A DNA stretch of 64,000 bases from contig JAJRZA010000033.1 of the NCBI GenBank assembly GCA_024275485.1, positions 26,487 to 90,486 of the forward strand, read 5' to 3'. Shown here piece after piece: positions 5,103 to 36,996 of this stretch. The notes beneath the pieces were generated by a model. The model ran no database searches. It saw nothing but the letters and a program-made list of their open reading frames with translations, and was not told the DNA's origin. Made by a program: the position numbers and the translations under genes. The stretch is from Candidatus Krumholzibacteriota bacterium. GTDB lineage: Bacteria > Krumholzibacteriota > Krumholzibacteriia > LZORAL124-64-63. Position 1 is the stretch's first letter; each line of letters starts with the position of its first letter.

Positions 5103-5147
5103 GGAATCCTCCTCTTTTCGGATTACTTCCGAACACGTTGGCAGGCT

Positions 5148-6554: not shown

Positions 6555-6641
6555 ATGGAGCCCGATTTTGGCCACGGTATTACCTTTCCAACAGTATGCT
6601 AAGGGCCAAGGGATTCATCCCGGACCATCATTTCCTACCCA

Positions 6642-15919: not shown

Positions 15920-16155
15920 GGTGATGCTTTCCATTCTGGTTTGGGTCGTTTGGGATTGAACCTGTTTTACACCTGAATATAAATCCCCCGGCATTCCCGG
16001 GGCCGCTTCCCCTCGCTTCGAAAAATGTTGGCAACATGATAACTCACAATCGCCAGGTTGACATTGGCCCCATTTTTCGTAAGTATTCCCTTCGATAAAC
16101 ATTGATTCGCCGGACATCATTTTCCGGTCCCCAATCCAACAGGAGCAAACCAGTC

Positions 16156-17097
16156 ATGTCCGAAAACAAAGCGCCAAAAACCATCGTCATCGGCTCGGGT
16201 CCTGCCGGCTACACGGCCGCCATTTACCTCGGCCGCGCCAATATCCCGCACATCCTGTTAGAAGGGGACCAGCCAGGCGGCCAACTGACCATTACCACTG
16301 AGGTCGAGAACTACCCCGCCTTCCCCGATGGCATCGAAGGCCCGGAACTGATGATGAAAATGAAGGCCCAGGCTGAGCGTTTCGGCACCCAGTTTTTAAG
16401 CGAGACGATCATCAGTGTTGATTTCAGCGGCGATACCCACCAGGTCAACACCAGCAAAGCCACCTACGAAGCCCCTACGGTGATCATCGCCACCGGCAGC
16501 ACCGCCCGCTGGTTGGGGTTGCCCGATGAAGACAAATTCATGGGCAAAGGCCTGAGCGCCTGTGCCACCTGTGATGGTTTCTTCTTCCGCGACCAGGAGA
16601 TTGCCGTGGTCGGCGGCGGTGATACCGCCCTCGAAGAAGCCACTTACCTGACGAATTTCGCCTCCAAGGTGACCCTGATTCACCGTCGAGACGAACTGCG
16701 CGGTTCGAAGATCATGCAGCAACGCGCCATTGATCACCCAAAAATAGAAATCGCCTGGAATAGCATCATTGATCATTATATGGCCGACGACCAGGGCAAC
16801 CTCTCGGGTCTCAAACTGAAAGACACCCAGGATGGTACCCTGCGCGACCTTGAGGTATCTGGCTGCTTTATCGCCATTGGCCACGTGCCAAATACTCAAT
16901 TTCTCGAGGGCGCCCTGAAGACCGACGAGAACGGCTATCTCATCACCCGTCCGGACGTGACCGCCGTTGATATTCCCGGTGTTTTTGCGTGTGGCGACGT
17001 TCAGGACCACGTTTACCGGCAGGCCATCACTTCGGCCGGCACCGGTTGCATGGCCGCCATGGAAGCTGAGCGTTTTATTGGTGAAAAAGGGCTCTAA
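16156..17097 (+). CDS. trxB: Thioredoxin reductase
   Basis: Has the FAD motif IVIGSGPAGYTAA, the redox-active CATC, the NADPH motif VVGGGDTALEEA and an AGGAG ribosome-binding site. Confidence 0.9.
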   Translation: MSENKAPKTIVIGSGPAGYTAAIYLGRANIPHILLEGDQPGGQLTITTEVENYPAFPDGIEGPELMMKMKAQAERFGTQFLSETIISVDFSGDTHQVNTSKATYEAPTVIIATGSTARWLGLPDEDKFMGKGLSACATCDGFFFRDQEIAVVGGGDTALEEATYLTNFASKVTLIHRRDELRGSKIMQQRAIDHPKIEIAWNSIIDHYMADDQGNLSGLKLKDTQDGTLRDLEVSGCFIAIGHVPNTQFLEGALKTDENGYLITRPDVTAVDIPGVFACGDVQDHVYRQAITSAGTGCMAAMEAERFIGEKGL

Positions 17098-17324: not shown

Positions 17325-18191
17325 ATGCACCAAGTCCTCGAACACACCATACTCGGACCCAACGTCCACCTCTTTCGCTTCGAAGCCTACGATGTCGCCC
17401 AATACCGTCAACCCGGCCAATTCGTCATTATCAGGGTCAACGACGAAGGCGAACGTATTCCACTGACCATTGCCGACGTGAATAAAGAAGAAGGCAGCAT
17501 CACCCTCATCGTACAGTCCGTGGGCAAGACCACCCTGGAGATGGCCCAACTCGAAGTCGGCGATTCAATCCCCGACATTTGTGGTCCTCTGGGCGAACCC
17601 ACCCACATCGAAAAAGTCGGCAAAGTTTTGTGCGTCGGCGGCGGTATCGGCACTGCCCCTCTTTACCCAGTGACCAAGGCCATGAAGGAAATCGGCAACC
17701 AGGTCACCAGCATTCTCGGTGCCCGGACCAAGGATCTCCTGATCCTTGAGCAGGAGATGAAGGATGCCAGCCATGGACTTGTCATCACTACAGATGACGG
17801 CTCCTACGGCATGAAAGGCCTAGTCACCAACGCCATAGAAAAACTTGTTGATGAGGGCAACAAGTTCGACCTCTGCGTCTGCATGGGCCCCCCCATCATG
17901 ATGAAATTTGTCAGTCTTTTGACCAAGAAGCTGAACATCCCATGCCTGGTCAGCCTGAACCCCATCATGGTCGACGGCACCGGCATGTGCGGCGGTTGCA
18001 GGGTCACGGTAGATGGTGAAACAAAATTCGCCTGCGTGGACGGACCCGAATTCGACGGCCATCTGGTGGACTTCGACGAAATGATGAGCCGCCTGACCAT
18101 GTACAAATCCTTCGAAAAAGACTCGCTGGATCATTACATGGGCGAAACCGGATGCAAGCTCGAAAACGCAGTCAAAGGGGAACCAAAATGA
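17325..18191 (+). CDS. nfnA: NfnA-like small subunit (PyrK/ferredoxin-NADP reductase-like, FAD and [2Fe-2S])
   Basis: PyrK-like fold with the C-terminal Cys cluster CGGCRV...C; its stop overlaps the next gene's ATG. Confidence 0.7.
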   Translation: MHQVLEHTILGPNVHLFRFEAYDVAQYRQPGQFVIIRVNDEGERIPLTIADVNKEEGSITLIVQSVGKTTLEMAQLEVGDSIPDICGPLGEPTHIEKVGKVLCVGGGIGTAPLYPVTKAMKEIGNQVTSILGARTKDLLILEQEMKDASHGLVITTDDGSYGMKGLVTNAIEKLVDEGNKFDLCVCMGPPIMMKFVSLLTKKLNIPCLVSLNPIMVDGTGMCGGCRVTVDGETKFACVDGPEFDGHLVDFDEMMSRLTMYKSFEKDSLDHYMGETGCKLENAVKGEPK

Positions 18192-19651
18192 AGAAAAAAG
18201 AAAGGATGCAAATCGACCCTGTGGACATGCCCCAGCAGGACCCAAAACTGCGGGTGCTCAACGTCGATGAAGTCCCAACAGGCTATACCGCTGAAATGGC
18301 CATGCTCGAAGCAAAACGCTGCATCCAGTGCAAGCGCCCCTTTTGCACCGAAGGTTGCCCCGTGGGCATCGATATCCCTGCCTTCATCCAGCTCATTGAA
18401 GATGGGGATTTTGCCGGAGCCGTGGCCAAGATCAAGGAGACCAACCTCTTGCCGGCTATTTGTGGCCGGGTTTGCCCCCAGGAAGAGCAATGCCAGCTGA
18501 CCTGCACCATTGGCAAGGCCCGCAAGGATCCCACCCAGGCCGTGAACATCGGCCGACTCGAACGTTTTTTGGCAGACTGGGAGCGCGAGCATGGGGACAT
18601 TCCCCTGCCGCCCAAGCCGACACCCACAGGTAAAAAGGTGGCCGTCGTTGGTGGTGGTCCGGCGGGCTTGACCGTGGCTGGAGATTTGATCCGCCAAGGG
18701 CACGAAATCACGGTTTTCGAGGCTTTTCACAAAGCGGGCGGTGTCCTTATCTATGGGATTCCCGAGTTCCGTCTGCCCAAGGCCATCGTTCAGAAGGAGA
18801 TTGATTACCTCGAAAAGCTGGGCGTCCGGTTCAAATACAACTTTGTGGTGGGCAAAACCGCCCCCATGTCAAAAATCGTCGAAGAATACGACGCAGTTTT
18901 TGTGGGCACCGGAGCGGGTTTGCCCCGCTTCATGAAAATCCCCGGGGAAAACCTGCTGGGCGTGTATTCCGCCAACGAGTATCTCACCCGGGCCAACCTG
19001 ATGCAGGCCTACAGTTTTCCAAAAACCGACACCCCGTTGATCACCGGCAAGTCGGTGGCCACCATCGGCGGAGGCAACGTGGCCATGGATTGCGCCCGCA
19101 CCGCCTTGCGCATGGGTGCCAAACGTTCGCTGATTGTCTACCGCCGCGCCGAAGAACAGATGCCGGCCCGCATTGAAGAGATCCACCACGCCAAAGAAGA
19201 AGGGGTGGAATTCCATACTTTGCAAAACCCGCTGAAATTCCTGGGCAACGACGAAAATTGGCTCACGGGCATCGAACTGTTGAAGATGAAACTTGGCGAA
19301 CCCGATGCCTCGGGACGACGCAGTCCGGTGCCCATGCCCGGAACCGAATTCGTTGAAGACGTCGACGTGGTCATTGTGGCCATCGGCAACAGCCCGAACC
19401 CGTTGGTTCCCAGAGATTTTCCTGAACTGGAAGTCACCCGCTGGGGCGGCATCGTGATCAACGAAGCCACCAGCCAAACCAACATTCCCGGAGTTTTTGC
19501 CGGGGGAGATATCGTGTTGGGTGCGGCCACCGTCATCCTGGCCATGGGCCACGGACGGCAGGCGGCAAAGTCCATCAACATGTACCTCAGTTCGGGTCGT
19601 TGGAGCGATCTTGAGAGCACCCTTTCGACCGACAGAGCCGATGTTAGATAA
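18188..19651 (+). CDS. nfnB: NfnB-like large subunit (glutamate synthase small-subunit/GltD family, 2x[4Fe-4S], FAD, NAD(P)H)
   Basis: N-terminal Cys clusters CIQCKRPFCTEGCP and CGRVCPQEEQC are followed by VAVVGGGPAGL and VATIGGGNVAMDCA. Confidence 0.75.
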   Translation: MKKKERMQIDPVDMPQQDPKLRVLNVDEVPTGYTAEMAMLEAKRCIQCKRPFCTEGCPVGIDIPAFIQLIEDGDFAGAVAKIKETNLLPAICGRVCPQEEQCQLTCTIGKARKDPTQAVNIGRLERFLADWEREHGDIPLPPKPTPTGKKVAVVGGGPAGLTVAGDLIRQGHEITVFEAFHKAGGVLIYGIPEFRLPKAIVQKEIDYLEKLGVRFKYNFVVGKTAPMSKIVEEYDAVFVGTGAGLPRFMKIPGENLLGVYSANEYLTRANLMQAYSFPKTDTPLITGKSVATIGGGNVAMDCARTALRMGAKRSLIVYRRAEEQMPARIEEIHHAKEEGVEFHTLQNPLKFLGNDENWLTGIELLKMKLGEPDASGRRSPVPMPGTEFVEDVDVVIVAIGNSPNPLVPRDFPELEVTRWGGIVINEATSQTNIPGVFAGGDIVLGAATVILAMGHGRQAAKSINMYLSSGRWSDLESTLSTDRADVR

Positions 19652-19731: not shown

Positions 19732-20718
19732 TTGAAAGGTCGCGTACTTATCATCGATGACGAGGCTGAGATTCGCAGGAATCTGACCGTAGGCCTGACC
19801 CAGGAAGATTACTCTGTGGTTGCCTGCCCCGACGGGCTGAGCGCCATCCATGAATTGAATCAGGCCCAGCAAAAGGGCCTCGCCTTCGACTACATGATCA
19901 CCGACATCTTCATGCCCGATATTGATGGCCTGAAGATCCTCAAAGTGATCAAAAACCAGTACCCGGATCTGCCTGTGTTGGTGATCACCGGGTTTGGCGA
20001 TGAACGTCTCGAAGTCACTGCCCTTTCCGAACCGAACACCGGTTTTCTGGACAAACCTTTTGAGATCTCCGAGTTGGTCCAAGCCCTCGAGGAACTCTCA
20101 CCCGGACAAACCTCCACCAGCGTTCCCGCAGAAGCCGATGAAGAAGGCATGCGCGAGTCGGTCAGCGCCTACCTCACGGTTATGGTCACCGACCAGGAAA
20201 ACAGCCTTGATATTTACGATCGATTGTACCGGCTTGAAGGCATCGTCAGCTGCGATGCCGTGCGCGGCGATTTCGACATCATCCTGCTGGCCCGCGGAAA
20301 GACCATGGAGGAAGTGCAGGAGATTTTCCAGCGGGTGGCCGAATTTGATGGTCTCGAAGTGCTGTCCATGAGTCCGGTGGAACGACCCAAGCTGGACCGC
20401 GACGTGGATCAGTTCATCGAAAGTTACCAGAAAGCCGTGCGTAGCGAAGCCGGCAAGAAGGAACACACCAACCCCGGCACCATCAGCTACATCATCGTCG
20501 ATATCGACCCCGAGGCCATTCAGAAGATTTTCACCACCGTCTTCTTTGTGGACGAAGTGGTTTTCTGTGACGTGATCGACAAAGGCACCAAGCTCGTGGG
20601 CATGATAACCGGCTTTGGAGCCATGGGACGCACACCGCGGGTCATCGAGAAGCTCTCGCAGATCGACGGCGTTCTGCGTGTGAGAGAAGCCAAGGTGATC
20701 AAACTGATTGAAGACTGA
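19732..20718 (+). CDS. Response-regulator receiver domain fused to two Lrp/AsnC-type C-terminal (RAM-like) domains; no recognisable DNA-binding domain
   Basis: A TTG start lies behind GGAGG. The receiver domain reads VLIIDDE...DYMITDIFMPDIDG...LDKPF. Two segments resembling the Lrp C-terminal fold follow (VRGDFDIILLARGKTMEEV... and DEVVFCDVIDKGTKLVGMI...). Confidence 0.55.
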   Translation: MKGRVLIIDDEAEIRRNLTVGLTQEDYSVVACPDGLSAIHELNQAQQKGLAFDYMITDIFMPDIDGLKILKVIKNQYPDLPVLVITGFGDERLEVTALSEPNTGFLDKPFEISELVQALEELSPGQTSTSVPAEADEEGMRESVSAYLTVMVTDQENSLDIYDRLYRLEGIVSCDAVRGDFDIILLARGKTMEEVQEIFQRVAEFDGLEVLSMSPVERPKLDRDVDQFIESYQKAVRSEAGKKEHTNPGTISYIIVDIDPEAIQKIFTTVFFVDEVVFCDVIDKGTKLVGMITGFGAMGRTPRVIEKLSQIDGVLRVREAKVIKLIED

Positions 20719-20821: not shown

Positions 20822-21319
20822 ATGGTCACCCAGCAGGAGAACTTCAGCTATCGGCTTTGGCGATACGACGGTGCACCGGGAGAACTGATTCCCCTGCTGC
20901 AGTCCGCCCAGGATCACTTCGGTTACATTCCCCGTCGCGCCATCAGCTACACTTCCAGTGTCACCGGCATCCCCGAGTAGGAAATCTACGGGGTCATCAC
21001 TTTTTACAGCCAATTCCGATTGCGCCCCATGGGCAAATTCGTGATCCGCGCCTGCGCCGGCACCGCCTGCCATGTTTCCGGCGCCAAAATGATCACCGAG
21101 ACCATTGAAGACGAAATTGGCATCGGTGTGGGCGATACTTCAGAAGACGGTCTGTTCACCCTGCAGACAGTGGCCTGCATCGGGTGTTGTTCCCTGGCCC
21201 CGGTGGTCATGGTCAACGACGATACTCACGGCTCCCTGAACCCTGCATCCACGCGCAAACTGGTGCGCAAGGTGGCCAGGAAAGCCCGCAAATCCATCGA
21301 CACCAAGACCAAGAGCTAA
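20822..21319 (+). pseudogene. NuoE/HndA/HydC-like thioredoxin-fold [2Fe-2S] subunit interrupted by an in-frame TAG at 20978-20980
   Basis: Both sides of the TAG align to NuoE (...TSSVTGIPE*EIYGVITFYSQF, then CAGTACHVSG...CIGCCSLAPV with all four Cys). This could be a sequencing error, a disrupted gene or readthrough. Alternatively only the C-terminal part (about 21020..21319) is expressed. Confidence 0.5.
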
Positions 21320-21348
21320 GGGCCGGCCCCCTCATAGGAGCACCATCA

Positions 21349-23130
21349 ATGAAGAAAATAATCGTAGGCATGGGCACTTGCGGACTCTCGGCCGGAGCGC
21401 AAGCGGTGTACGACCGTTTGAGTGAGCTGGCCGACGAACATTCCGATCAATGCGAGCTGAGCATCACCGGCTGCATCGGCATGTGTTATCGCGAACCCCT
21501 GGTGGAAATCAACGACGGCAAGAGCCGAGTTATCTACGGCGGTGTCGACGCCAAAAGCGCCGAAGAAATCATCCAGCGTCATGTTTTGAATGATGAGCGC
21601 ATCGTCGACGAAAACTTTGTCTATTGCATTGAGGAAGACGCGTCCACCAATGGCGAAGAAGCCACCTACCTGGATTTGCAGGAACGAATCGTATTACGCA
21701 ATTGTGGTAATATCGATCCAGAAAGCATTAACGATTATATAGCGAGCGGTGGATATGAAGCTGCACGCAAAGTTCTTACCGAGATGACTCCTGAGGAGGT
21801 CGTTGGGGAAGTCAAAGATTCCGGACTGCGGGGCCGTGGAGGCGCGGGTTTTCCCACGGGGTTGAAATGGTCCTTCTGCGCCGGCTACAAGGGTGACAAG
21901 AAATATGTGGTCTGCAACGCCGATGAAGGCGATCCCGGAGCATTCATGGATCGCTCGGTGCTCGAAGGTGATCCCCACGCAGTGCTTGAAGGAATGATTA
22001 TCTGCGCCAAGGCCATTGGCGGCACCCATGGTTACATCTACTGCCGGGCCGAATATCCCTTGGCCATCAAGCGTCTTGAAATTGCTTTGGCCAGTGCCCG
22101 CGAGAAAGGTTTCCTGGGCAAAAACATCATGGATTCCGGTTTTGATTTCGACATGAAAATCAAGCAGGGTGCCGGCGCTTTTGTGTGCGGGGAGGAAACG
22201 GCCCTGTTCGCCTCCATTGAAGGCCAGCGCGGCATGCCCCGCATTCGCCCGCCGTTCCCCGCCGAAGCCGGCCTCTGGCAAAAGCCCACCAACAACAACA
22301 ATGTCGAGACCTTTGCCAACATTCCCTGGATCATTCGCAATGGTGCGGCCGCCTACTCGGCCTACGGCACCGAAAAAAGCAAGGGCACCAAGGTTTTCGC
22401 CCTGACCGGACGGGTGGTCAAAGGCGGCCTGGCCGAAGTACCCATGGGTACCACAATTGAAGACCTGGTATTCAAGATCGGGGGCGGAATCAAGGATGGC
22501 GGGACCTTCAAGGCGGTGCAGATGGGTGGCCCGAGCGGCGGTTGCATCCCCGCCGACCAGAAGAATATCAAGGTGGATTTTGAGACCATCCCCAAAACCG
22601 GCGCCATCATGGGATCCGGCGGCATGGTGGTCATGGATCAAACCACCTGCATGGTCGAGATCGCCAGATTCTTTCTGGATTTCACTCAGAGCGAGAGTTG
22701 CGGCAAGTGCGCCTTCTGCCGTATCGGCACCCTGCGCATGCTGGAAATCCTGGAGCGTCTGGTGCATGGTGAAGGCGTTCCCGAGGACATCGACAAGTTG
22801 AAAGAACTGTCGGTGCGCATCAAGGAAGCCAGCCTTTGCGGCCTGGGTCAGACTGCGCCCAATCCGGTGCAAACCACCTTGCGTTATTACCTGCACGAAT
22901 ACGAAGCCCACATCCGGGATCAGAAATGTCCCGCCGGCAGTTGCCAGGCCCTTGTGGATTTCATCATCGATGGGGAAAAATGCAACGGTTGCACGGTTTG
23001 CGCCAAGGCCTGCCCGGTGGATGCCATATTCGGAGTGAAAAAGGAAATCCACGTGATTGATACGGACGCGTGTGTGCAATGCGGCAAGTGCCTCACCAGT
23101 TGCAGCTTTGACGCGATTTTCACGCGGTAA
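21349..23130 (+). CDS. NuoF/HydB/HndC-like NADH-binding FMN subunit with extra N-terminal [2Fe-2S] and C-terminal 2x[4Fe-4S] ferredoxin domains
   Basis: The N-terminal Cys motif reads GTCGLSAG...GCIGMC. The NuoF core has GRGGAGFPTGLKW and CGKCAFCR. The C-terminus reads CNGCTVCAKACP...CVQCGKCLTSC. A ribosome-binding site TAGGAG is present. Confidence 0.85.
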   Translation: MKKIIVGMGTCGLSAGAQAVYDRLSELADEHSDQCELSITGCIGMCYREPLVEINDGKSRVIYGGVDAKSAEEIIQRHVLNDERIVDENFVYCIEEDASTNGEEATYLDLQERIVLRNCGNIDPESINDYIASGGYEAARKVLTEMTPEEVVGEVKDSGLRGRGGAGFPTGLKWSFCAGYKGDKKYVVCNADEGDPGAFMDRSVLEGDPHAVLEGMIICAKAIGGTHGYIYCRAEYPLAIKRLEIALASAREKGFLGKNIMDSGFDFDMKIKQGAGAFVCGEETALFASIEGQRGMPRIRPPFPAEAGLWQKPTNNNNVETFANIPWIIRNGAAAYSAYGTEKSKGTKVFALTGRVVKGGLAEVPMGTTIEDLVFKIGGGIKDGGTFKAVQMGGPSGGCIPADQKNIKVDFETIPKTGAIMGSGGMVVMDQTTCMVEIARFFLDFTQSESCGKCAFCRIGTLRMLEILERLVHGEGVPEDIDKLKELSVRIKEASLCGLGQTAPNPVQTTLRYYLHEYEAHIRDQKCPAGSCQALVDFIIDGEKCNGCTVCAKACPVDAIFGVKKEIHVIDTDACVQCGKCLTSCSFDAIFTR

Positions 23131-23166
23131 CGAGTTCCCAAACGAGCCAGTTCTTAGGAGCAGCCG

Positions 23167-26100
23167 ATGAGTACCATAAAAATGACAGTCAACGGGCGGG
23201 AAATCGAAACTTCCGGTGACAAAACCATCCTCGAAGTGGTTCATGACCAGGGTCTGGATACTATCCCGACCCTGTGCCACAGCCCGGAACTCAAACCCTA
23301 CGGATCCTGCTTCCTTTGTGTGGTCGAAGTGGAAGGGCGCCCCAATCTGGTGCCCTCCTGCGCCACCCGGGTGATGGATGGCATGAAGGTGGAAACGAAA
23401 AATCCGCGCATCAGAGCCAGCCGCAAAACCGCCCTGGAGCTGTTGCTATCCAACCACTACGCCGATTGCAGCAGCCCCTGCATGGAAGGCTGTCCCGCCC
23501 ACGTGGACGCCCAGGGCTACATCGCCCTGGCAGCCATGGGCGAAAACCTCAAGGCTGTCGAGTTGATCCGTGAAGCCAACCCCCTGCCTGCGGTTTGCGG
23601 GCGCATCTGCGTGCGCAAGTGCGAAGTGGTTTGCCGGAGGGAAGACGTCGATACCCCGGTGGCCATCAACAACATCAAACGTTATGTCACGGATATGGAA
23701 GACATCTATGACGCGGACCCGGTTTGCGATGCAGACACGGGAAAAAGCGTGGGCCTGGTCGGCTCGGGACCTGCCAGCCTCACCGCCGCCTGGTACCTGG
23801 GTCGCAAGGGCATCAAGGCCGTCATGTATGAAGCCCTCGACCTCACAGGGGGCATGCTGCGCTACGGCATCCCCGAATACCGACTGACCGATGAGGTGCT
23901 GGACAAGGAAATCGACTACATCCTGCGCACTGGTGCGGAAATCAAAACCGGAGTGCGAATTGGCACCGACATTTCTCTGGACGAATTGCGCAACAGGCAT
24001 GACGCAGTCTTTATCGGTGCCGGAGCCTGGACCGGCAAGAGCATGCGGGTCGAAGGCGAGCACACCACCGAAGGCGTGGTCACCGGTGCCGACTGGCTGC
24101 CCGAAATGGTCAACCATCCAGTACAGCTGCAAGGAAAGGTGGTGGTGGTGGTCGGTGGCGGCAACACCGCCATGGATTGCGCCCGCACCGCATGGCGCCT
24201 GGACGCGGCCAAGGTGATCGTGCTTTACCGTCGAACCAAGAACGAAATGCCCGCCGACAATATGGAGATCGAGGATTTGCTGGAAGAGGGGGTGGAGATA
24301 ATGGAGCTGATGGCCCCCATCGGCATCGTGAACGACAACGGCAAACTCCAGGCCATCCGTTGCCAGCGCATGGCCCTGGGCGAACCCGATGATTCCGGTC
24401 GCCGCCGCCCCGTGCCCCAGGAAGGCAGCGAATTCGACCTGCCCTGCGATCTTGCCCTGAGCGCCATTGGCCAGGACACCGTGCTTGACGGTCTTGTTGA
24501 AACGGAACTGGGCACCGTTGAATTAACGCGTTGGAATACTTACGCCGTCAATACCAATACCCTTGAAACCAACATCCCCGGCGTATTCGCCGGTGGTGAC
24601 GCCGTGGACGACGGCCCCACCGTGGTGATCGATGCCATCGGTGACGGCCAACGGGCAGCCAGATCCATGATCGCCTACATCACAGGCGGAGTAGTCGAGC
24701 GGGAACCCTTTGTGGTGAGGAAATCCTTCTGGGCCAAACCGGGCAAGAAGGAGCTGGGCGACATCCCCGAATCGCCCCGGCACGAATTGCACCTGTTGGA
24801 AGTCGATGACCGCCGGAGCAATTTCAGCGAAGTCGCCACCGGCTTTGAATTTGCCGACAAACAGCACGAAACCGCCCGTTGCCTGAGCTGCGGTTGCGTG
24901 CGCTTCGATGATTGCGCCCTGCGCCTCTACGGCCAGGAATACAACGTCGACATGGAGCGCTACAAGGGTTACATCCGCAAGCACAAGGTGGATGACCGCC
25001 ACCCGTATGTGAGTTACGACCCCAACAAATGCATTCTCTGTTCGCGTTGCATACGCACCTGTGAGAAGGTCCTGCCCATCAGCGCCCTCGGCCTCGTTGG
25101 CCGAGGCTTCAGAACCGAGATGCGGCCGGCCATGAACGACGCCCTGCAGGATACGAACTGCGTCAGCTGCGGCAACTGCATCGACGCCTGTCCCGTAGGT
25201 GCCCTGACCGCCCAGTATGCCTTCGATGGCCGGGCCTGCCTCGACACCCTGGATGTTAAAACCCACTGCGCGTTCTGCTCCATCGGTTGCACTTTGACCA
25301 TCCGCAAATTTGGAGAAAGCAGCTATTTTGCCACCAGCAGCGGCATTCCCGGCGACTACCTCTGCCGTTACGGACGCTTTGGTGCGGAGTTGCTCATCCA
25401 GAGCGACCGCATCGACAGCCCCATGATTCGTGAAGGCCATACCTACCGGGAAGTGGAACTGGGCGAAGCCACCGGGCGAATCGTCGATCGAATGAAAGAG
25501 GTGGCGGCCGAGCACGGTCCCGAAAGCGTGGCCGTATTTGCCAGCCCGGAACTGACCAACGAAGAACTCTACCTGGCCGGACGCCTGGCACGCGAAGGCC
25601 TGGGCACCAACAATGTGGGCTCCCTGGCCATCCTGTCCGGCGCTGGACGAAGCGGCGCCATGGACCCGGCTTTAGGCTTCACCGCCTCCACTGCTGACCG
25701 CAGCTGCCTGAAGGATGCCGACCTGATCATCTGCAACAACACAGCCATGGAATCGGATCACCTGGTTCTCAATGTGGATGTGATCGGCCCCGTGCGCGAT
25801 GGCGGCGCCAGGCTCATTGTCTCCAACAGTACACTGGATCCCGCCGATCAGCGCCTCAGCACCCTCGCGGTGGATCCCATGCGTGGCCGTGGTTCCTACT
25901 TCTGGAACGCCGTCCTGCAGGAAGTTCTCGAAAGCGACCACCTGGGCTGCGACGGCATTGCCGGTGCCGAGGAATTCCTGGACGGAAGAAACGTCTCGTT
26001 TGAACTGGCAGCAGCCAAGTCCGGTGTGGACGAAAAACATATTCATGAAGCGGCTGAACTTATACGGCAGGCCAATAACATTGTCATCGTGCATGGTATT

Positions 26101-26853
26101 GATCGTCCCCATGACGCTGCACCCGGCGACCTGGAAATCTTCACCAACCTGGCAATCCTGTTGAACCATCATGGCCGCAATGCGGAGATTCTGCTGCCTC
26201 GTCAGCTGGCCAACAGCGCCGGCCTGGAAATCATGGGAGCCGATCCCGCTTTCGACCTGGGCAAGGTTGCCGCCCCCAAGCTCCCCGGCGCCCTCAACAG
26301 TCAGCAACTCCGCTCCAACCTCGAGGGTGGTCACATCAGGGCCGCCCTGATCCTGGGCGAGAATCCCCTGGATTTCGATCGCACCGGCAGTTGGTTTCAG
26401 AACATTGAATTCTTGGCAGCCATGGATTGGACTGAAACCGAAACCACGCGTTTCGCCGATGTCACCTTGCCCGGGTCCACCTTCCTGGAGACCGCCGGCA
26501 GCCGATGCAATTTCGAAGGCCTGGTCACCGACTTCAGCGCCGCCGTTCAGCCTCCCAGTGGCCTCGGCGGAATTGAGGTTCTGGAAAAACTGACGAGCGA
26601 CTTTGGCCTGGAAGTCCCCGGGAACCTGTCCACCCATATCGACCGCCTCGTCGCCAAAAACCTCGGCGCCCTGAAACCCTTCTACTGGAATACGGGACAG
26701 GATCGCCTGCGTCCGGCCGAGGTTCAATTGATCCCGGTGGAGGTCGACGCCAAGGCCTCGTCCATGCGTCCGCCAATGACCCATAGCCAGAAATACCGCA
26801 AGGAAATCCGAGAGGTAGGCACCGAGCGGTTCCGTGTGCAGCACGGTCACTAA
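23167..26853 (+). CDS. 1228-aa fusion oxidoreductase with domain order NuoG-like [2Fe-2S], GltD-like FAD/NAD(P)H, [4Fe-4S] clusters, molybdopterin-oxidoreductase-like; SfrB+SfrA-like
   Basis: The N-terminal motif reads CHSPELKPYGSCFLC. GltD-like motifs follow (CGRICVRKCEVVC, VGLVGSGPASL, VVVVGGGNTAMDCA). Then come HxxxC/4Fe-4S motifs (CLSCGCVRFDDC, CILCSRCIRTCE, CVSCGNCIDACP), a Molybdop_Fe4S4-like CAFCSIGC...CRYGRFG and a molybdopterin-like C-terminal half. I see no [FeFe]-hydrogenase H-cluster motifs. Confidence 0.75.
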   Translation: MSTIKMTVNGREIETSGDKTILEVVHDQGLDTIPTLCHSPELKPYGSCFLCVVEVEGRPNLVPSCATRVMDGMKVETKNPRIRASRKTALELLLSNHYADCSSPCMEGCPAHVDAQGYIALAAMGENLKAVELIREANPLPAVCGRICVRKCEVVCRREDVDTPVAINNIKRYVTDMEDIYDADPVCDADTGKSVGLVGSGPASLTAAWYLGRKGIKAVMYEALDLTGGMLRYGIPEYRLTDEVLDKEIDYILRTGAEIKTGVRIGTDISLDELRNRHDAVFIGAGAWTGKSMRVEGEHTTEGVVTGADWLPEMVNHPVQLQGKVVVVVGGGNTAMDCARTAWRLDAAKVIVLYRRTKNEMPADNMEIEDLLEEGVEIMELMAPIGIVNDNGKLQAIRCQRMALGEPDDSGRRRPVPQEGSEFDLPCDLALSAIGQDTVLDGLVETELGTVELTRWNTYAVNTNTLETNIPGVFAGGDAVDDGPTVVIDAIGDGQRAARSMIAYITGGVVEREPFVVRKSFWAKPGKKELGDIPESPRHELHLLEVDDRRSNFSEVATGFEFADKQHETARCLSCGCVRFDDCALRLYGQEYNVDMERYKGYIRKHKVDDRHPYVSYDPNKCILCSRCIRTCEKVLPISALGLVGRGFRTEMRPAMNDALQDTNCVSCGNCIDACPVGALTAQYAFDGRACLDTLDVKTHCAFCSIGCTLTIRKFGESSYFATSSGIPGDYLCRYGRFGAELLIQSDRIDSPMIREGHTYREVELGEATGRIVDRMKEVAAEHGPESVAVFASPELTNEELYLAGRLAREGLGTNNVGSLAILSGAGRSGAMDPALGFTASTADRSCLKDADLIICNNTAMESDHLVLNVDVIGPVRDGGARLIVSNSTLDPADQRLSTLAVDPMRGRGSYFWNAVLQEVLESDHLGCDGIAGAEEFLDGRNVSFELAAAKSGVDEKHIHEAAELIRQANNIVIVHGIDRPHDAAPGDLEIFTNLAILLNHHGRNAEILLPRQLANSAGLEIMGADPAFDLGKVAAPKLPGALNSQQLRSNLEGGHIRAALILGENPLDFDRTGSWFQNIEFLAAMDWTETETTRFADVTLPGSTFLETAGSRCNFEGLVTDFSAAVQPPSGLGGIEVLEKLTSDFGLEVPGNLSTHIDRLVAKNLGALKPFYWNTGQDRLRPAEVQLIPVEVDAKASSMRPPMTHSQKYRKEIREVGTERFRVQHGH

Positions 26854-26928
26854 TCGCCTTGGCCGCAGCGGTTAATTCATTCCGGCTGGGACGGGGTATA
26901 CCGTCCCTTGCTGAAGGAGAATCCGTTC

Positions 26929-28917
26929 ATGATCAGTCTCGAGGTTTTGTATTCACTTATTGAGGAAAATTACGTTTTCCTGCTGGACTGCGATGCCGAT
27001 GAAAAATTGATTTACTGTAGCAAAGAGCTGAAAAAAAATCTGGGACTTCACCATCCGGCCAGCGTAGTGCCCCATCTTGAAGATGTGCTCGACCCGGCGG
27101 CAATCATCTCTTTTCGCAAAGCCATTTGCAGCGTCAACGAGGGCACCCGCGGCATCAACGCAATGCTGACTCCCAAGCGTCTGCGTTCAACCAATCTTCC
27201 CATGCATGTGCGGTACGTGGAAGAAGATGGCAATAAACACTATCTATTTTTTGGTGCCCAGATAGACACCCTCAACCAAATCAACGACTGGGAAAGGGAA
27301 GAACGAGTCAAGGAGCTGAGTTGTTTGTATGGAGTCGCCGAATGGATCGAAACTTCTCCCAACATCCATGAATTTTTTTCCAAACTGCCGAAATACCTGG
27401 CACCGGGAATGCGCTATCCTGCCGAAGCCGCCATCTATTCCATCTACAATGATGTGGAGTATGGACAGGAGCCGGTCGGCGATGACTTCATCGTTGCTTT
27501 CTTGGTGGTCAACGGCGAACTCAAGGGTGAAATTCGCATCGGCTATATTCGTGATAGCCATGAGTTGCTGCCCGAAGAGCAGAAAATGCTCAGCGAGATC
27601 GGGCGTATCCTGAATCTGGCCATGGAGCGCAAGGAATTGTCCGACGGGGTGGCCCTGAAACAGGAAGAGGAAGCGGAGTTTCGGGAGCGACTGGCACAGC
27701 TGGAAAAAAAAATCAGTGCCCGAGAAGGCGAGCTCGAAGTCCAGCAACAAAAATTGAGCACCGCCGACAGCTACCTCCAACGCATCAACAGTGGTTGGGA
27801 AAAAGCCAGTCGGCGCATGGAGACCATGTTCAAGGCCATGCCTGATCCGGTGATGCTCATTGATCCGGACCTGAACGTGGTTATGAGCAACAAAGCCGAC
27901 GTGCAAACGGGGGAAAAATGTTACCGGGCATACTTCCAGCGTGAAACTCCGTGCCCGGATTGCCGCATCAGTAAAGTTATCCGTGACAAAACACCTGTCA
28001 CCAGCAACATCCGGCAGGAGGGAAAATTTCTCCAATTGCACACCCTACCTGTATTCAACGAGAATCAGGAGGTCGACGGCATCCTGGAGTTCTTGAGGGA
28101 TATCACCCTGGAAAAAACCTACGAGCAGCAAATCCAGCAGGCTGACAAACTGGCCAGCCTCGGGCAATTGGTCAGCGGAATCGGCCATGAGATCAACAAT
28201 CCCAACCAGTTCATCCGGGGCAATGTAAAAATCGTTCGCCAGGCTCTGGAAGACATGCTGCCCATTGTCGACGCCTACTACGAAACCCACCCGGACCTGA
28301 AGATTGCCCGCCTGAAATACGCTTTTTTCAAGGATCACATCATGACACTGGTGGAGGATATGTCCCACGGCAGTGAACGCATCAAGGGTATCGTCGACGG
28401 GTTGCGCGGCTTTGCCCGCAAAGACGAAGGCCTGCTGGTCGACACGGTTGATGTAAACACCCTGCTGGGCGCCACGACCCGCCTGGTGCAAAACGAAGTC
28501 AACAAGCACGCCACCATTGAGCTGGACCTGGGCGAAGACCTTCCCTCCTTCTCCGGCAACAGCCAGAAAATCGAGCAGGTTCTGGTGAACCTGATCGTCA
28601 ACGCCGCCCAAGCCATGGCCGATGATGTGAAGGGACTGATCAGGGTCACCACCAGAAGGGAAGGCAGCCACATAGCCATCCGCATCGCCGACAATGGCCG
28701 TGGTATGGATGAAAAGACCCAGAAGCAGATATTCGACCCCTTCTTTACCACCAAACGAACCAAAGGCGGCACGGGCCTGGGCCTGGCCATCTCTTTCCGA
28801 ATCATTGAAGAACATGGCGGCACCATCACCGTTGCCAGTGAATTCCACAAGGGTACCACCTTCACCGTCCGCCTCCCGGTCGGGGACGACGACACCAAAA
28901 TGGCGGAGAAATCATGA
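26929..28917 (+). CDS. PAS-domain sensor histidine kinase
   Basis: The ATG follows AAGGAG. An H-box GHEINNP and HATPase_c blocks (NLIVNA, DNGRGMD, GGTGLGL) are present; the N-terminal half is PAS-like with a coiled coil. Confidence 0.8.
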   Translation: MISLEVLYSLIEENYVFLLDCDADEKLIYCSKELKKNLGLHHPASVVPHLEDVLDPAAIISFRKAICSVNEGTRGINAMLTPKRLRSTNLPMHVRYVEEDGNKHYLFFGAQIDTLNQINDWEREERVKELSCLYGVAEWIETSPNIHEFFSKLPKYLAPGMRYPAEAAIYSIYNDVEYGQEPVGDDFIVAFLVVNGELKGEIRIGYIRDSHELLPEEQKMLSEIGRILNLAMERKELSDGVALKQEEEAEFRERLAQLEKKISAREGELEVQQQKLSTADSYLQRINSGWEKASRRMETMFKAMPDPVMLIDPDLNVVMSNKADVQTGEKCYRAYFQRETPCPDCRISKVIRDKTPVTSNIRQEGKFLQLHTLPVFNENQEVDGILEFLRDITLEKTYEQQIQQADKLASLGQLVSGIGHEINNPNQFIRGNVKIVRQALEDMLPIVDAYYETHPDLKIARLKYAFFKDHIMTLVEDMSHGSERIKGIVDGLRGFARKDEGLLVDTVDVNTLLGATTRLVQNEVNKHATIELDLGEDLPSFSGNSQKIEQVLVNLIVNAAQAMADDVKGLIRVTTRREGSHIAIRIADNGRGMDEKTQKQIFDPFFTTKRTKGGTGLGLAISFRIIEEHGGTITVASEFHKGTTFTVRLPVGDDDTKMAEKS

Positions 28918-30290
28918 GTGAAAACAGCAATGGAAACATGAGAAAAGTGCTCATCGTTGACGATGATGTGGCCGTGACCAACTACTTCATGGTTTTCCTG
29001 ATGCAGACGGAAATTTTTGAACCCGAAGTGGAAAATGACTCCCGGAAAGTTGCCGGCCTGCTCAAGGACAACACCTACGATGTGATCATGCTCGATCTGG
29101 ATATGCCCAATGTCACGGGCATGGAAATCCTGCGCCAGATGCGGGCCGAAGGCCACGTAACCCCCGTGATCATCCTCACCGGAGTCAGTGACGTGGACCT
29201 GGCCGTAAAATCCATGAAGTATGGTGCCTTCGACTACTTGACCAAACCCGTTGACGACGAACACCTGCTGGAAGTGCTCAGCAGTGCCGTTGAGAAAGGA
29301 AGTCTCCAACAGTCCATGGAAGAATTGCCGGCCGAATCCACCGCCGACGATCTGGAGTTTCAATCGGCATTTGAACACCTGCCCACCCAAGACCCGGCCA
29401 TGTTGAACCTATTCCATCAGGCAGAGACTTTGGCCGAAAGCAACTTGAATATATTCATCTCCGGCGAACGGGGCTCTGGGAAAAAGTCCCTGGCCAGAGC
29501 CGTTCACAAAGCCAGCGGACGCCAGGAGGGCCCGTGCAAGGCCCTGGATTGCACAACACACACGCCGGATGAATTTTCCGGTGTCCTCTTCGGCCGGGCC
29601 AAGGACTGGAGCGGCATCAGCGAGGAGATCCCCGGCGCCCTGAGCGATTCCTCCGGCGGCACCCTCTTCATCAACAACATCGAACACATGAGCCCGGCGG
29701 TGCAACTGCGCTTGAATCATGTGCTACATACTGGTGAATACTACCGGGACAACAGTACCGAAATCCTGCAGGCCGATGTGCGTTTTATCGTTTCCTCAAC
29801 CCACGACCTGACAGGCAGTCAGTTTCGGGAAAGTTTCTCCAGGGATCTGCTCTACCATGTGATGGTCAACAGTCTGCAGATCCCTCCACTGCGGGATCGT
29901 CCCACTGATATTCCTATTCTGGCCAATTTCTTTTTGGCTGAGGAGAATCGGTGCAACAATAAAAAAATCAAAGGTATCACCGATGAGTTGATGGCACTTC
30001 TCACTCAATATTTCTTTCCTGGCAACATGCAGGAACTGCGAAAACTGATTCTCTCGGCCATTGCCGCCACCACTGATGATATGCTCGGCGCCGAAGATCT
30101 TTCCACCTATTCCCGGGAGCGCATCACCCTGGGTACCTGTCGGGGGCCCTTCCGGCCCAGGAAGCTGCAGAATATCATCAGGGAGCAAGTTGCAGATACC
30201 ATCAAATATTGCAAGGGCAACCCAGAAGAGGCCGCCCGTCTGCTGGATATTTCACTGGAGGAAATGAACAGTTACCTGCCTCAGGACTAG
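28914..30290 (+). CDS. NtrC-family response regulator (receiver, AAA+, Fis-type HTH) with a degenerate sigma-54 interaction module
   Basis: The receiver reads VLIVDDD...DLDMP...TKP. The AAA+ region reads GERGSGKK in place of GESGTGKE. GAFTGA is replaced by KDWSGI, Walker B reads NNIE instead of DEIG, and FPGNMQELR replaces WPGNVRELE. The C-terminal HTH is intact. Confidence 0.7.
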   Translation: MSENSNGNMRKVLIVDDDVAVTNYFMVFLMQTEIFEPEVENDSRKVAGLLKDNTYDVIMLDLDMPNVTGMEILRQMRAEGHVTPVIILTGVSDVDLAVKSMKYGAFDYLTKPVDDEHLLEVLSSAVEKGSLQQSMEELPAESTADDLEFQSAFEHLPTQDPAMLNLFHQAETLAESNLNIFISGERGSGKKSLARAVHKASGRQEGPCKALDCTTHTPDEFSGVLFGRAKDWSGISEEIPGALSDSSGGTLFINNIEHMSPAVQLRLNHVLHTGEYYRDNSTEILQADVRFIVSSTHDLTGSQFRESFSRDLLYHVMVNSLQIPPLRDRPTDIPILANFFLAEENRCNNKKIKGITDELMALLTQYFFPGNMQELRKLILSAIAATTDDMLGAEDLSTYSRERITLGTCRGPFRPRKLQNIIREQVADTIKYCKGNPEEAARLLDISLEEMNSYLPQD

Positions 30291-33480: not shown

Positions 33481-35013
33481 CTACCGAACCTCCCGGCTTT
33501 CAATGAGGTCATGCATCCCATACCGGGCAATTTTCTTATACAAACCCTGCCGGGAAAGTCCCAATTGCCGGGCCGCGGGAGCTTTCCGGCCTTCGGCTGC
33601 CGCGATGGCTTTGCGGATGAGGAACTGCTCCAGGATCTGGTTGGCTTGATCCAACTTGCGCAAGGTGCCCAAATCCGATGGGTGGGCCAAACCATCGTCC
33701 CCGGTCTGCACATCCATGGAGAGATGGTTGGGTTTGATGCGATTCACCTTGGGATATAGAGCCAAAAACCTCATGACCTCGTTTTCCAGTTCCCGTACAT
33801 TGCCCGGCCAGCGCCAGGATTGCAAGAGTTGCAGGGCCTCTTCGGAAATGGTGACCTTTTCAGCAGCCCTACCACCCTTTTGCAGGAAGTAGGAGAAAAG
33901 CGGCAGAATGTCTTCCGGCCGATGCCGCAGCGGTGGAATCACCATATTGACAACCTTCAAGCGATAATAAAGATCCAGCCGGAACCGGCCGGTTTCAATT
34001 TCCAGTTGAAGATCCTTGTGGGTGGCCGCCACGAAGCGCAAATCCACGGCCACTCCTTTCAGGTCTCCAATACGACGGACGGTTCTTTCCTGCATCACAC
34101 GTAGGAGTTTGATTTGCAGGGCCAAAGGCATGTCCCCAATTTCATCCAGAAAAAATGTGCCACCGCTTGCTGATGCCAGCAACCCCTTTTTATCGCCCTG
34201 GGCACCTGTGAACGAGCCCGCCTTGTGTCCGAAGAGTTCGCTTTCAAAAAGGGATTCCGGCAGGGCTGCACAGTTCTGCCCCACAAACGGTCCCCCCTTC
34301 CTCGGACTGCAAATATGCAAAGCCTGGGCAACAATCTCCTTGCCCGTCCCACTCTCCCCATTCAAAAGGACATTCACCCCGCTGGCGGCAATGCTCTCCA
34401 ATCGCTCCCCCAGATGTTTCATCTCCTGACTCACTCCAACACAGCCGGGAATACCGGGAATTGTCAGAGGCCGTGGCATGGGAATGGCCCTAGTGCGGTC
34501 CGTGAGTTGAATTCTCTGCGGCTTGTGTTTGGCTGAAGAACCGACTTTCAGGTCAAATTCAGACAAGGGAAACAATGTGGGTTGCCAGGGAAAACCTCCA
34601 CCTGGTGCCATGGCGGGCACGGCACCCAATTGATCCAGCACCGGGGTCAAACGGGCGGCCAGGCGCTGGGACCAAAGGAACACCGCCTCCCGCCAAGGTC
34701 CATCCGACTGAAACCACACGCCAATGCATCCGTGCACCAAGGACCCACTCATGAGAGGCTCAACCCACAGGGCCTTATCCCTTTCCCAATGAGCCAACTC
34801 CTCCTTTCGTCGAGCCATGGCCTGCAAAAAACTGCTGAGAGGCGGACGGGCAGCCAGGCCATCGAGTCGGGCTTGACCGGTGGCCCAGGCGTAGAGAATT
34901 TTCAATGGCGAAGTGGGATCGCGACCTTCTCGGCGGACAACCCACAGAGCCACACCGTCGGCGCCGTGGGGAAAATTGCGCATTTCTTCATACCAAAAAC
35001 TCAAAGTATCCAT
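33481..35013 (-). CDS. Sigma-54-dependent transcriptional activator with an uncharacterised Trp-rich N-terminal sensory domain
   Basis: Has GESGTGKE, ESELFGHKAGSFTGA, GGTFFLDEIGDMP and WPGNVRELEN, plus a C-terminal Fis-type HTH. A GAGGGGG ribosome-binding site is present. Confidence 0.85.
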   Translation of the reverse strand: MDTLSFWYEEMRNFPHGADGVALWVVRREGRDPTSPLKILYAWATGQARLDGLAARPPLSSFLQAMARRKEELAHWERDKALWVEPLMSGSLVHGCIGVWFQSDGPWREAVFLWSQRLAARLTPVLDQLGAVPAMAPGGGFPWQPTLFPLSEFDLKVGSSAKHKPQRIQLTDRTRAIPMPRPLTIPGIPGCVGVSQEMKHLGERLESIAASGVNVLLNGESGTGKEIVAQALHICSPRKGGPFVGQNCAALPESLFESELFGHKAGSFTGAQGDKKGLLASASGGTFFLDEIGDMPLALQIKLLRVMQERTVRRIGDLKGVAVDLRFVAATHKDLQLEIETGRFRLDLYYRLKVVNMVIPPLRHRPEDILPLFSYFLQKGGRAAEKVTISEEALQLLQSWRWPGNVRELENEVMRFLALYPKVNRIKPNHLSMDVQTGDDGLAHPSDLGTLRKLDQANQILEQFLIRKAIAAAEGRKAPAARQLGLSRQGLYKKIARYGMHDLIESREVR

Positions 35014-35627: not shown

Positions 35628-35869
35628 ATACCGGATTGCTCACAATACCTATATCGTTCAAAAGACATACCCATTGATCTTTTTGTTGATCCCCCCAAAT
35701 GGACAACCAAAAACCCACTCCCTCGCTTGAACTCCTGAGAATATCGCTAGGCTAAAATCAACCCAATATTTTGATATGATTATTTGTTTTCAGGCCTGTT
35801 TGTTTGGATTTCAGGTTGATTTTGGCTTTTGGGAAACCAGCGACATTCTCTTGGGCACAACTTTTGAAA

Positions 35870-36883
35870 TCAAAAAAGAAGTTGTACAGGCATGTCACCT
35901 GCCGCCACATCCCCCAACAAAACCGCCCCAACACCCTCAACCTGAGACAAGTCCAGGCTCTCATCAGCAATGACGACCATACCGATGCCCATGTTGAACA
36001 CACGATGCATTTCCACATCCGAGACATCACCCTTGGCCTGGATCAATTGGAAAATATCCAGGGCCTGAAAGGAATTCGTGTCCACATTCACGCAAAGGCC
36101 ATCAGGAACGACCCGTGGAATGTTGTCATAAAAGCCGCCGCCGGTGATATGGACCAGGCCATGAATGGCTTCACGGCCAAACTTCTGCCACAGGTTGCGC
36201 ACATCACCGAGGTAGCTCTTGTGCACCTTCAGCAGGGCGTCGCCCACCGAAACGCCATTCAATTCCGCGGGAGTGTCGCTGACGGAGTAGCCCACTTTAT
36301 CGAACAACACCGCCCGGGCCAAACTGAAACCATTGGTGTGCAAACCGGTGCTGGGCAACCCCCATACTTTGTCGCCTGCTGCAATGCCGCTGCCGTCGAT
36401 GACGTTTTCCGGCAATACCCGCCCCACAATAGTACCGGCCAGATCAAACTCCCCCGGTCCGTAAACACCGGGCATTTCGGCGGTCTCGCCGCCGAGCAGG
36501 GCACAGCCATTCTCACGACAGGCCGTGGAAAACCCATCGATGATTTCCGGCAGCATCTCTTCTTCCAGCTTGCTGGTCGCAAAATAGTCCAAGAAGAAAA
36601 GGGGTTCCGCCCCCTGCACAAGAATGTCGTCCACACAGTGGTTGACCAGGTCCTGCCCCACTGTGTTGTAGCGGGCGGCCATGCGGGCGATCATCACCTT
36701 GGTACCCACTCCGTCCACGCTGGCAACCATGAGAGGTTCGCCCTCGGCAGCCTGGAAGAGTCCACCAAAGGCTCCCATCTCATTTTTGACACGATGGTCC
36801 CAGGTCGAACGCACAGCTTTCTTGCTGCGGGCCAGGGCGCGGGTGGCTGCGTCGATGTTCACACCGCTGTCGGCATACTTCAT
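35870..36883 (-). CDS. purM: Phosphoribosylformylglycinamidine cyclo-ligase (AIR synthetase)
   Basis: Has the PurM-family N-terminus MKYADSGVNIDA and the blocks GGLF and VDGVGTKV. Confidence 0.9.
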   Translation of the reverse strand: MKYADSGVNIDAATRALARSKKAVRSTWDHRVKNEMGAFGGLFQAAEGEPLMVASVDGVGTKVMIARMAARYNTVGQDLVNHCVDDILVQGAEPLFFLDYFATSKLEEEMLPEIIDGFSTACRENGCALLGGETAEMPGVYGPGEFDLAGTIVGRVLPENVIDGSGIAAGDKVWGLPSTGLHTNGFSLARAVLFDKVGYSVSDTPAELNGVSVGDALLKVHKSYLGDVRNLWQKFGREAIHGLVHITGGGFYDNIPRVVPDGLCVNVDTNSFQALDIFQLIQAKGDVSDVEMHRVFNMGIGMVVIADESLDLSQVEGVGAVLLGDVAAGDMPVQLLF

Positions 36884-36996
36884 GGATTCCTCCAGATGAG
36901 CTGATGGTTGGTAATGATCCTGGGCAGATGATAAGAGCAGCAGCCGGATGGTTCAAGGGCGCGCGAGAAATTTAACGGAATTATTTGAAGAAAAAA

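Follow-up and report, generated by a model that had tools for sequence, protein, structure and literature searches.

A probable Stn/NfnABC-type (Type 1 Nfn-Bfu) transhydrogenase operon with a premature amber codon in a Krumholzibacteriota genome

The question raised by three consecutive genes in a 64,000-nucleotide stretch of DNA from a Candidatus Krumholzibacteriota bacterium (assembly GCA_024275485.1, contig JAJRZA010000033.1, positions 26,487 to 90,486; the whole stretch is called the window here, and positions are counted from its first letter) is whether they encode a new kind of electron-bifurcating complex or a known one. The genes are nfnC, also called stnA (BfuC, a NuoE-like [2Fe-2S] subunit; 20822-21319), nfnB or stnB (BfuB, NuoF-like, 593 amino acids; 21349-23130) and nfnA or stnC (BfuA of a Type 1 Nfn-Bfu, a single polypeptide of 1228 amino acids; 23167-26853), all on the plus strand. 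An initial annotation, made from the sequence without database searches, had described them as tightly spaced, which is correct (the intergenic gaps are 29 and 36 nucleotides), and had proposed a HydABC/Stn-type NADH/NADPH/ferredoxin oxidoreductase that would be a second Nfn-like transhydrogenase beside a neighbouring nfnAB pair and whose fused third subunit looked like an undescribed variant. The comparisons reported here bear out the first part of this proposal through matches to solved structures and through sequence motifs, while the claim of novelty is not sustained: with a probability of roughly 0.85, nfnCBA encode a Type 1 Nfn-Bfu (Stn/NfnABC) NADH/NADPH/ferredoxin transhydrogenase that is an ordinary member of a known family.

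The evidence that carries this assignment comes from the comparison of the three proteins with all PDB sequences. For each of them the three Nfn-Bfu enzymes that have been characterised rank first, and the alignments cover nearly the full length. For NfnA these are NfnA of C. saccharolyticus (9bov_A, 1178 amino acids; E 2.7e-233, residues 3-1150 against 3-1107), StnC of S. ovata (8oh5_C, 1172 amino acids; 2.8e-211) and NfnA of T. sibiricus (9n5u_A; 6.3e-168), and over the printed alignment of residues 3-500 the identity to the C. saccharolyticus protein is about 50%. The gene order nfnC-nfnB-nfnA is also identical to that of S. ovata, in which stnA (NuoE) and stnB (NuoF) precede stnC (PDB 8OH5/8OH9; PMC7483475, PMC10482914). 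These matches establish that the proteins belong with the Stn/NfnABC enzymes, which Schut et al. (2022) place as Type 1 Nfn-Bfu in the Bfu (BfuABC) family (PMC9304861).

In a BfuA subunit of this type the N-terminal [2Fe-2S] domain is followed by an inserted NfnL/GltD-like module, then by 4Fe-4S clusters and finally by an Fdh/NuoG-like domain, and this is the arrangement found in NfnA. The Pfam matches are Fer2_4 (residues 3-79), Fer4_20 (101-178), Pyr_redox_2 (196-494), Fer4_Nqo3 (613-681) and Molybdopterin (748-1130), and the NCBIfam matches are PRK12814 over residues 1-635 and NuoG over 583-1131. The N-terminal [2Fe-2S] domain (residues 1-101; 23167-23469) contains the Fer2_4 match with Cys37, Cys48, Cys51 and Cys65. 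It is followed by an NfnL/GltD-like FAD/NADPH module with two [4Fe-4S] sites (residues 102-565; 23470-24861), which is defined by Fer4_20, by Pyr_redox_2 and by alignment to C. saccharolyticus NfnA and StnC, and which contains the motifs H97-x3-C-x3-C-x3-CP, C144/148/152/156, K171, R239, G330-G-G-N-T-A and Y354-R-R. The next segment (24880-25209) holds a CxxCxCx5C cluster (residues 572-583), a motif named for Stn in PMC7483475, and a ferredoxin-like domain with two [4Fe-4S] clusters (residues 613-681, Fer4_Nqo3). The Fdh/NuoG-like C-terminal domain (residues 697-1228; 25255-26850) contains the Molybdopterin match and one [4Fe-4S] site (Cys701, Cys704, Cys708 and Cys733). The domain scan thus reproduces the order [2Fe-2S], GltD, [4Fe-4S], molybdopterin-like that had first been read from the sequence.

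It is this same order that removes the novelty. StnC of S. ovata (1172 amino acids) has a [2Fe-2S] domain at residues 1-101, a GltD domain at 102-565 and an inactive FdhF-like domain at 683-1172 (PMC10482914), and in C. saccharolyticus NfnA the N-terminal domain is followed by an NfnL-like domain and then by an Fdh/NuoG-like one, whose pterin site is incomplete and shows no pterin density (PMC11829005). Because this fused architecture, together with its NuoEF partners, has already been characterised in StnABC and NfnABC, an outcome that the initial annotation had itself named as fatal to the claim, the enzyme cannot be called an undescribed variant; the annotation had described Stn as “NuoEF plus GltD”, a description that omits the FdhF-like part of StnC. 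The other possibility that it had named as refuting its proposal, that the large open reading frame might be two genes joined by a frameshift error, is rejected, since more than 120 full-length homologues in public protein databases (1204-1246 amino acids, 61-89% identity, same Pfam set) and purified enzymes of similar length share the length of NfnA.

The cofactor ligands are established by an alignment of the window NfnA with 119 homologues. Invariant positions include Cys37/48/51/65 of the [2Fe-2S] domain, His97, Cys101/105/109, Cys148/152/156 and Lys171 in and next to the NfnL/GltD-like module, Cys572/575/577/583, the eight cysteines of the ferredoxin-like domain, and Cys701/704/708/733. 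Lys171 is the diagnostic residue: in A7, the first [4Fe-4S] cluster after the FAD (A7/C7), the fourth ligand in the known enzymes is an unusual lysine, Lys170 in C. saccharolyticus and K170 in StnC (PMC11829005, PMC10482914). The window residues Cys109, Cys148, Cys152 and Lys171 correspond to C. saccharolyticus Cys108, Cys147, Cys151 and Lys170, so that the set of three cysteines and one lysine is complete. The NADP(H)-type GxGxxA signature is likewise present, with G330-G-G-N-T-A and L353-Y-R-R-T identical in C. saccharolyticus and S. ovata.

In the Fdh/NuoG-like domain, by contrast with a formate dehydrogenase, neither the Mo/W ligand nor domain IV is present. The Mo-ligand pair Cys386-His387 of formate dehydrogenase (“ARVCHSP”, 9wxb_B) aligns to Ser824-Gly825 of NfnA (“AILSGAG”), two positions that vary across the family (G/S/A/T and G/T/A/S respectively). 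The alignment of NfnA to YjgC ends about 200 residues short of the end of YjgC and the Pfam scan of NfnA finds no Molydop_binding domain, from which it follows that the pterin-binding domain IV is missing. The domain therefore has no pterin or Mo ligands, as expected of the inactive Fdh-like domain of the family, and membership among the Mo/W-bisPGD formate dehydrogenases is rejected, in line with the initial reading, for which this half was not clearly a formate dehydrogenase. That reading had also reported no [FeFe]-hydrogenase H-cluster, and here too it stands: the Pfam scan of NfnA finds no H-cluster domain (no Fe_hyd_lg_C), and the HydA model NF040763 covers residues 4-105 only, with 183 bits against a cut-off of 765.

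NfnB contains, in order, a weak N-terminal thioredoxin-like 2Fe-2S match, Complex1_51K, SLBB, NADH_4Fe-4S and two C-terminal Fer4 domains. The FMN/NADH site and the B1 [4Fe-4S] cluster expected of a Bfu enzyme are represented by Complex1_51K (E 6.7e-47) and NADH_4Fe-4S (E 2.6e-31), with the conserved NADH loop GLRGRGGAGFP at residue 159 and the B1 cysteines at C451/454/457 and C497. The subunit also has the additional BfuB sites that are absent from non-bifurcating NuoF homologues, namely the B5 site in the N-terminal domain (2Fe-2S_thioredx, a weak match over residues 8-76; Cys11/42/46), the B2 Cys/His site (KCPAGSC at residue 526) and clusters B3 and B4 of the C-terminal 2x[4Fe-4S] domain (CxxCxxCxxxC at residues 545-555 and 575-585). 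The corresponding sequences CGKCAFC...LCG, KCPAGSC, CNGCTVCAKAC and CVQCGKCLTSC are all present, and the NADH loop, the B1 cysteines, the B5 region, B2 and both C-terminal motifs align to StnB and to C. saccharolyticus NfnB. The best PDB matches are StnB (8oh5_B, E 3.6e-250 over residues 3-590, about 62% identity over the printed alignment) and C. saccharolyticus NfnB (9bov_B, 1.6e-243), then T. sibiricus NfnB; the B subunits of bifurcating hydrogenases rank below the Nfn-Bfu B subunits, and respiratory NuoF lies far behind. The domain order and this ranking agree with the earlier description of NfnB as a bifurcating-type NuoF-like subunit with an extra N-terminal [2Fe-2S] and a C-terminal 2x[4Fe-4S] domain.

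For the first gene, the earlier description held only in part. The homology to NuoE-like [2Fe-2S] subunits is plain: Pfam 2Fe-2S_thioredx matches the frame with E 6.8e-48, the best PDB matches are NfnC of T. sibiricus (9n5u_C, 2.6e-49; about 51% identity over the printed alignment), NfnC of C. saccharolyticus (9bov_C) and StnA (8oh5_A), and all four cysteines expected for the thioredoxin-like [2Fe-2S] cluster C1 (Cys78, 83, 119 and 123) are present. The reading frame is not intact: it contains an in-frame TAG at codon 53, which had been overlooked; the Pfam match extends across both sides of it.

Among the closest characterised systems is C. saccharolyticus NfnABC (PDB 9BP5/9BOV; PMC11829005), whose three subunits are those of the window enzyme with an identical domain order, and which has in common with it the A7 ligands (three cysteines and a lysine), every other cluster and an Fdh-like domain free of pterin. 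The two differ at a few positions and in context: C. saccharolyticus NfnA has Ile at the position of window Cys144 and Cys at that of window Ala115, and its host belongs to the Firmicutes, whereas the window host belongs to the Krumholzibacteriota, a candidate phylum of the FCB group, and flanks its operon with dedicated regulator genes. StnC of S. ovata shares K170 and R239 (K171 and R239 in the window) and the GxGxxA, HxxxCxxxCxxxCP and CxxCxC motifs, and differs in having C114 where window NfnA has Ala; the S. ovata stn genes adjoin Wood-Ljungdahl genes in the absence of NfnAB, while the window operon adjoins an NfnSL pair and trxB. The Nfn-Bfu of T. sibiricus (PDB 9N5U/9N5V; PMC12018979), grouped here with Nso of T. 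litoralis, has homologous NfnA and NfnB subunits and supplies the best PDB match for the NuoE-like subunit, but the archaeal NfnA is shorter (963 amino acids) and is reported without cluster A4, whereas the window NfnA is of the long bacterial form. HydABC is related through the common BfuBC core, HydB and HydC being strong PDB matches to NfnB and NfnC, and differs in its A subunit, which has an H-cluster domain instead of the GltD and Fdh-like modules.

The distribution of the operon was surveyed by scanning one genome per GTDB species, which returned 80 loci. The closest (92%) is in a Candidatus Krumholzibacteriia metagenome-assembled genome, which places the window in an uncultured bacterium of the Krumholzibacteriia, and others are found in Fermentibacteria, Aegiribacteria, Sabulitectum, Eisenbacteria, Planctomycetota, Spirochaetales, Acidobacteriota, Elusimicrobia, Verrucomicrobiota and further groups. 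Among the GTDB loci with enough flanking sequence, a gene for a receiver-RAM protein, nfnC and nfnB lie upstream of nfnA in every case (68/68), so the operon itself is conserved. A kinase gene lies downstream in 47 of 54 loci (directly adjacent in 32), and a gene for an NtrC-like regulator in 42 of 54. NfnS and NfnL are encoded directly upstream in 26 of 59 loci, mainly in Krumholzibacteriia and Fermentibacteria.

In the window itself, trxB and the nfnAB genes, here called nfnS and nfnL, do lie upstream, and regulators stand on both sides, as had been described. The gene trxB (16102-17097, plus strand) encodes a thioredoxin-disulfide reductase that passes the NCBIfam TIGR01292 cut-off (385.8 bits against 343.45). 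It is followed on the same strand by nfnS (17325-18191; PDB matches 5jca_S and 4ylf_A) and nfnL (18188-19651; 4ylf_B and 5jca_L), which starts at 18188 in an ATGA overlap with nfnS. The pair is of the classical bifurcating NfnSL/NfnAB type: NfnL finds its matches in T. maritima NfnB (1.3e-163) and P. furiosus NfnI-L, and for NfnS the match to NfnI-S (9.7e-103) is much better than that to Xfn. Enzymes of the Stn and Nfn types have been reported to be almost mutually exclusive in acetogens and Thermococcaceae (PMC9304861, PMC7483475). The presence of two different types of bifurcating transhydrogenase side by side on one strand is a mild curiosity in its own right.

By homology to the solved enzymes of S. 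ovata, C. saccharolyticus and T. sibiricus, which would supply by analogy the substrates, the reaction direction and the oligomeric state of the window enzyme, the following mechanism can be proposed. In the NfnL/GltD-like module of NfnA, NADPH would reduce the non-bifurcating FAD, and electrons would then pass singly through the Lys/Cys-ligated A7 and through A6, A3, A2 and A1, the N-terminal [2Fe-2S] cluster being the last, and on to NfnBC, in whose core the B1 cluster, the FMN and the NfnC [2Fe-2S] would split them between NAD+, reduced at the FMN, and ferredoxin, reduced by way of NfnB's C-terminal 2x[4Fe-4S] domain. Such a reaction would be reversible, and its direction in vivo is probably from NADH and reduced ferredoxin to NADPH; trxB and the NfnSL genes, which lie directly upstream, fit that direction. 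In NfnA, the Fdh-like C-terminal half would be a structural remnant without pterin that forms a dead-end branch; in the known enzymes it mediates the formation of tetramers (PMC10482914, PMC11829005).

Several points weigh against the assignment of an ordinary, working member of the family. The Nfn-Bfu enzymes of this clade are known from genes alone, and the adjacent classical NfnSL leaves room for a divergent physiological role. Cys144 of NfnA (23596-23598, “PAVCGRIC”) is invariant in 120 members of the clade, in addition to the known ligands, so that a fourth cysteine is possibly available to A7 besides Lys171, and this could alter the ligation and potential of the cluster; the residue at this position is Ile or Leu in the three solved Nfn-Bfu enzymes and Cys in T. 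maritima NfnB. Finally, the nfnC reading frame is broken in the window sequence: its 165 sense codons are interrupted by the TAG at 20978-20980 (translated context “...SVTGIPE*EIYGVITFY...”).

The amber codon raises the most serious alternative, which is that the cluster is a recently inactivated pseudogene in this strain, with a truncated NfnC, a bifurcating core that cannot assemble, and NfnSL taking over the transhydrogenase function. This alternative is credible enough to be taken seriously, although it is held at somewhat under even odds. In its favour, codon 53 is a sense codon in all 73 of the related loci that cover the position (Ser in 67, Ala in 4, Val in 2; TCG in 26), and TAG acts as an ordinary stop in the window, where it terminates 13 of the 56 long open reading frames, including that of a regulator of the same cluster. 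If the TAG is real, NfnC would be cut within the N-terminal domain by which, to judge from C. saccharolyticus NfnABC, it is anchored to NfnA and NfnB, and the bifurcating core would probably fail, the [2Fe-2S] cluster of NfnC being part of the bifurcation site in that enzyme (PMC11829005). An intact second transhydrogenase, NfnSL, is also available 1 kb upstream.

Against inactivation stands the absence of any decay beyond the single base. The two closest retrievable genomes carry TCG at codon 53 and an intact 165-residue NfnC, so the window differs from them by a single C-to-A change; downstream of the stop, nfnC shows 29 synonymous and only 6 non-synonymous codon differences from its nearest relative (L085), nfnB and nfnA remain whole and keep their invariant ligands, and no further decay is seen in nfnC or the operon. 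Since the downstream differences are mostly synonymous and nfnB and nfnA are intact, the amber is either a very recent change or an assembly or sequencing error, and equally good explanations are an error of consensus or of sequencing and, the genome being metagenome-assembled, a minority allele. Read as a recent nonsense mutation, the codon would leave this strain with an inactive complex; otherwise the base itself is an error of assembly or sequencing. The possibility that the TAG is recoded as a sense codon, by pyrrolysine or reassignment, was also considered and rejected, because TAG serves as a normal stop in the window, the scans for RNA genes there turned up neither a tRNA nor a member of any known RNA family to support recoding, and the relatives encode Ser.

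A different departure from the assignment of an ordinary member is suggested by the regulators. The gene directly upstream of nfnC, in the window (19732-20718, plus strand) as in the clade, encodes a receiver followed by two RAM (AsnC-ligand-binding-like) domains (Pfam Response_reg, AsnC_trans_reg). The protein has 328 amino acids and no DNA-binding domain in the Pfam scan, and its best 120 homologues are all of 327-330 amino acids at 73-100% identity, so that across phyla it is more conserved than NfnA; another example lies at 4527-5513 of locus L001. An AlphaFold2 model, which has low confidence (pLDDT 61.5) and was used for secondary structure only, has a receiver followed by two beta-alpha-beta-beta-alpha-beta domains. 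Downstream of nfnA on the plus strand, a gene identified by Pfam encodes a soluble PAS histidine kinase (26908-28917), whose PAS domain contains the motif C338-x10-C349-x2-C352 (C-x10-PC-x2-CR), invariant in 54 orthologues, which may be a metal-binding or redox-sensing site.

The kinase gene is followed by one for an NtrC-like response regulator with a degenerate AAA+ domain (28914-30290, plus strand; Pfam). In this regulator the GAFTGA loop is absent (KDWSGI instead, R/KDWSGx in the orthologues) and the Walker B “DE” is changed to NN (LNNI/DNI in the orthologues), a degeneracy common to 46 orthologues. The window also contains a canonical activator (33481-35013) and rpoN (5148-6575), both on the minus strand. 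A search for sigma-54 promoters (TGGCAC-N5-TTGCW, up to 2 mismatches) gave 45 matches against 44 expected, with none in the relevant intergenic regions, and a scan for sigma-70 promoters and terminators was uninformative.

From these features it could be argued that the Nfn-Bfu clade of the FCB/PVC phyla is a separately regulated and mechanistically tuned variant, with a dedicated regulatory circuit and an all-Cys A7; this is judged unlikely. As to the circuit, the receiver-2xRAM protein, the kinase with its cysteine-containing PAS domain and the GAFTGA-less NtrC-like regulator could together form a dedicated redox- or amino-acid-sensing system that switches the supply of NADPH between NfnSL and NfnABC, or the receiver-RAM protein could act directly on the enzyme. 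As to the cluster, Cys144 could give an all-Cys A7 with energetics unlike those of the Lys-ligated cluster of the solved enzymes.

More doubtful still, to the point of being improbable, is the idea of an SfrAB-like fusion that acts as a non-bifurcating NADPH:ferredoxin or Fe(III) oxidoreductase, or else of an undescribed variant with a third substrate other than NADP(H). The GltD-like SfrB and the Fdh/NuoG-like SfrA of G. sulfurreducens do correspond, as distant homologues, to the two halves of NfnA, and the clade-specific Cys144 and the co-occurrence with NfnSL might point to some such difference. But SfrB and SfrA, whose identities to StnC are 39.9% and 27.8%, are separate polypeptides without a NuoE/NuoF core, whereas the window has a single polypeptide of 1228 amino acids, all 68 loci also encode NuoE and NuoF partners of the bifurcation type, the additional clusters of the B subunit included, and the architecture and NADP(H) motifs are identical to those of the characterised Stn/NfnABC enzymes. 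Last, an NAD+/ferredoxin-dependent formate dehydrogenase (Fdh-Bfu) with a catalytic molybdopterin-like half, as might be read from the Pfam Molybdopterin match, from a partial match to the Fdh-alpha model TIGR01591 and from the JGI name “formate dehydrogenase major subunit” given to homologues, can be regarded as already refuted, because the TIGR01591 match reaches 162.5 bits against a cut-off of 666, the metal-ligand pair is replaced at a variable position, domain IV is absent, and neither formate activity in S. ovata Stn nor pterin density in C. saccharolyticus NfnA is found.

Elsewhere in the window, the open reading frames at 60471-63452 (993 amino acids) and 35804-36904 (366 amino acids) have no Pfam match at E <= 1e-5.

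With the Stn/NfnABC assignment, the locus carries little weight for enzymology, the family having been purified in 2020 and solved by cryo-electron microscopy from three organisms. Its use for annotation is more immediate, since database labels such as “FAD-dependent oxidoreductase”, “formate dehydrogenase major subunit” and “molybdopterin oxidoreductase” should be replaced by NfnA/StnC. What is new here is the amber codon in nfnC, the conserved linkage of the operon to its regulators, and the presence of NfnSL and trxB directly upstream. The premature stop cautions against inferring an active pathway in this particular genome. For the family as a whole, whose members balance NADH, NADPH and ferredoxin in anaerobes, the results mean that Stn-type transhydrogenases are widespread in the uncultured FCB/PVC phyla, where their genes form, together with those of unusual regulators, a conserved unit of six genes, and that in Krumholzibacteriia and Fermentibacteria the Stn-type operon, placed beside NfnSL and trxB, forms an “NADPH supply” locus.

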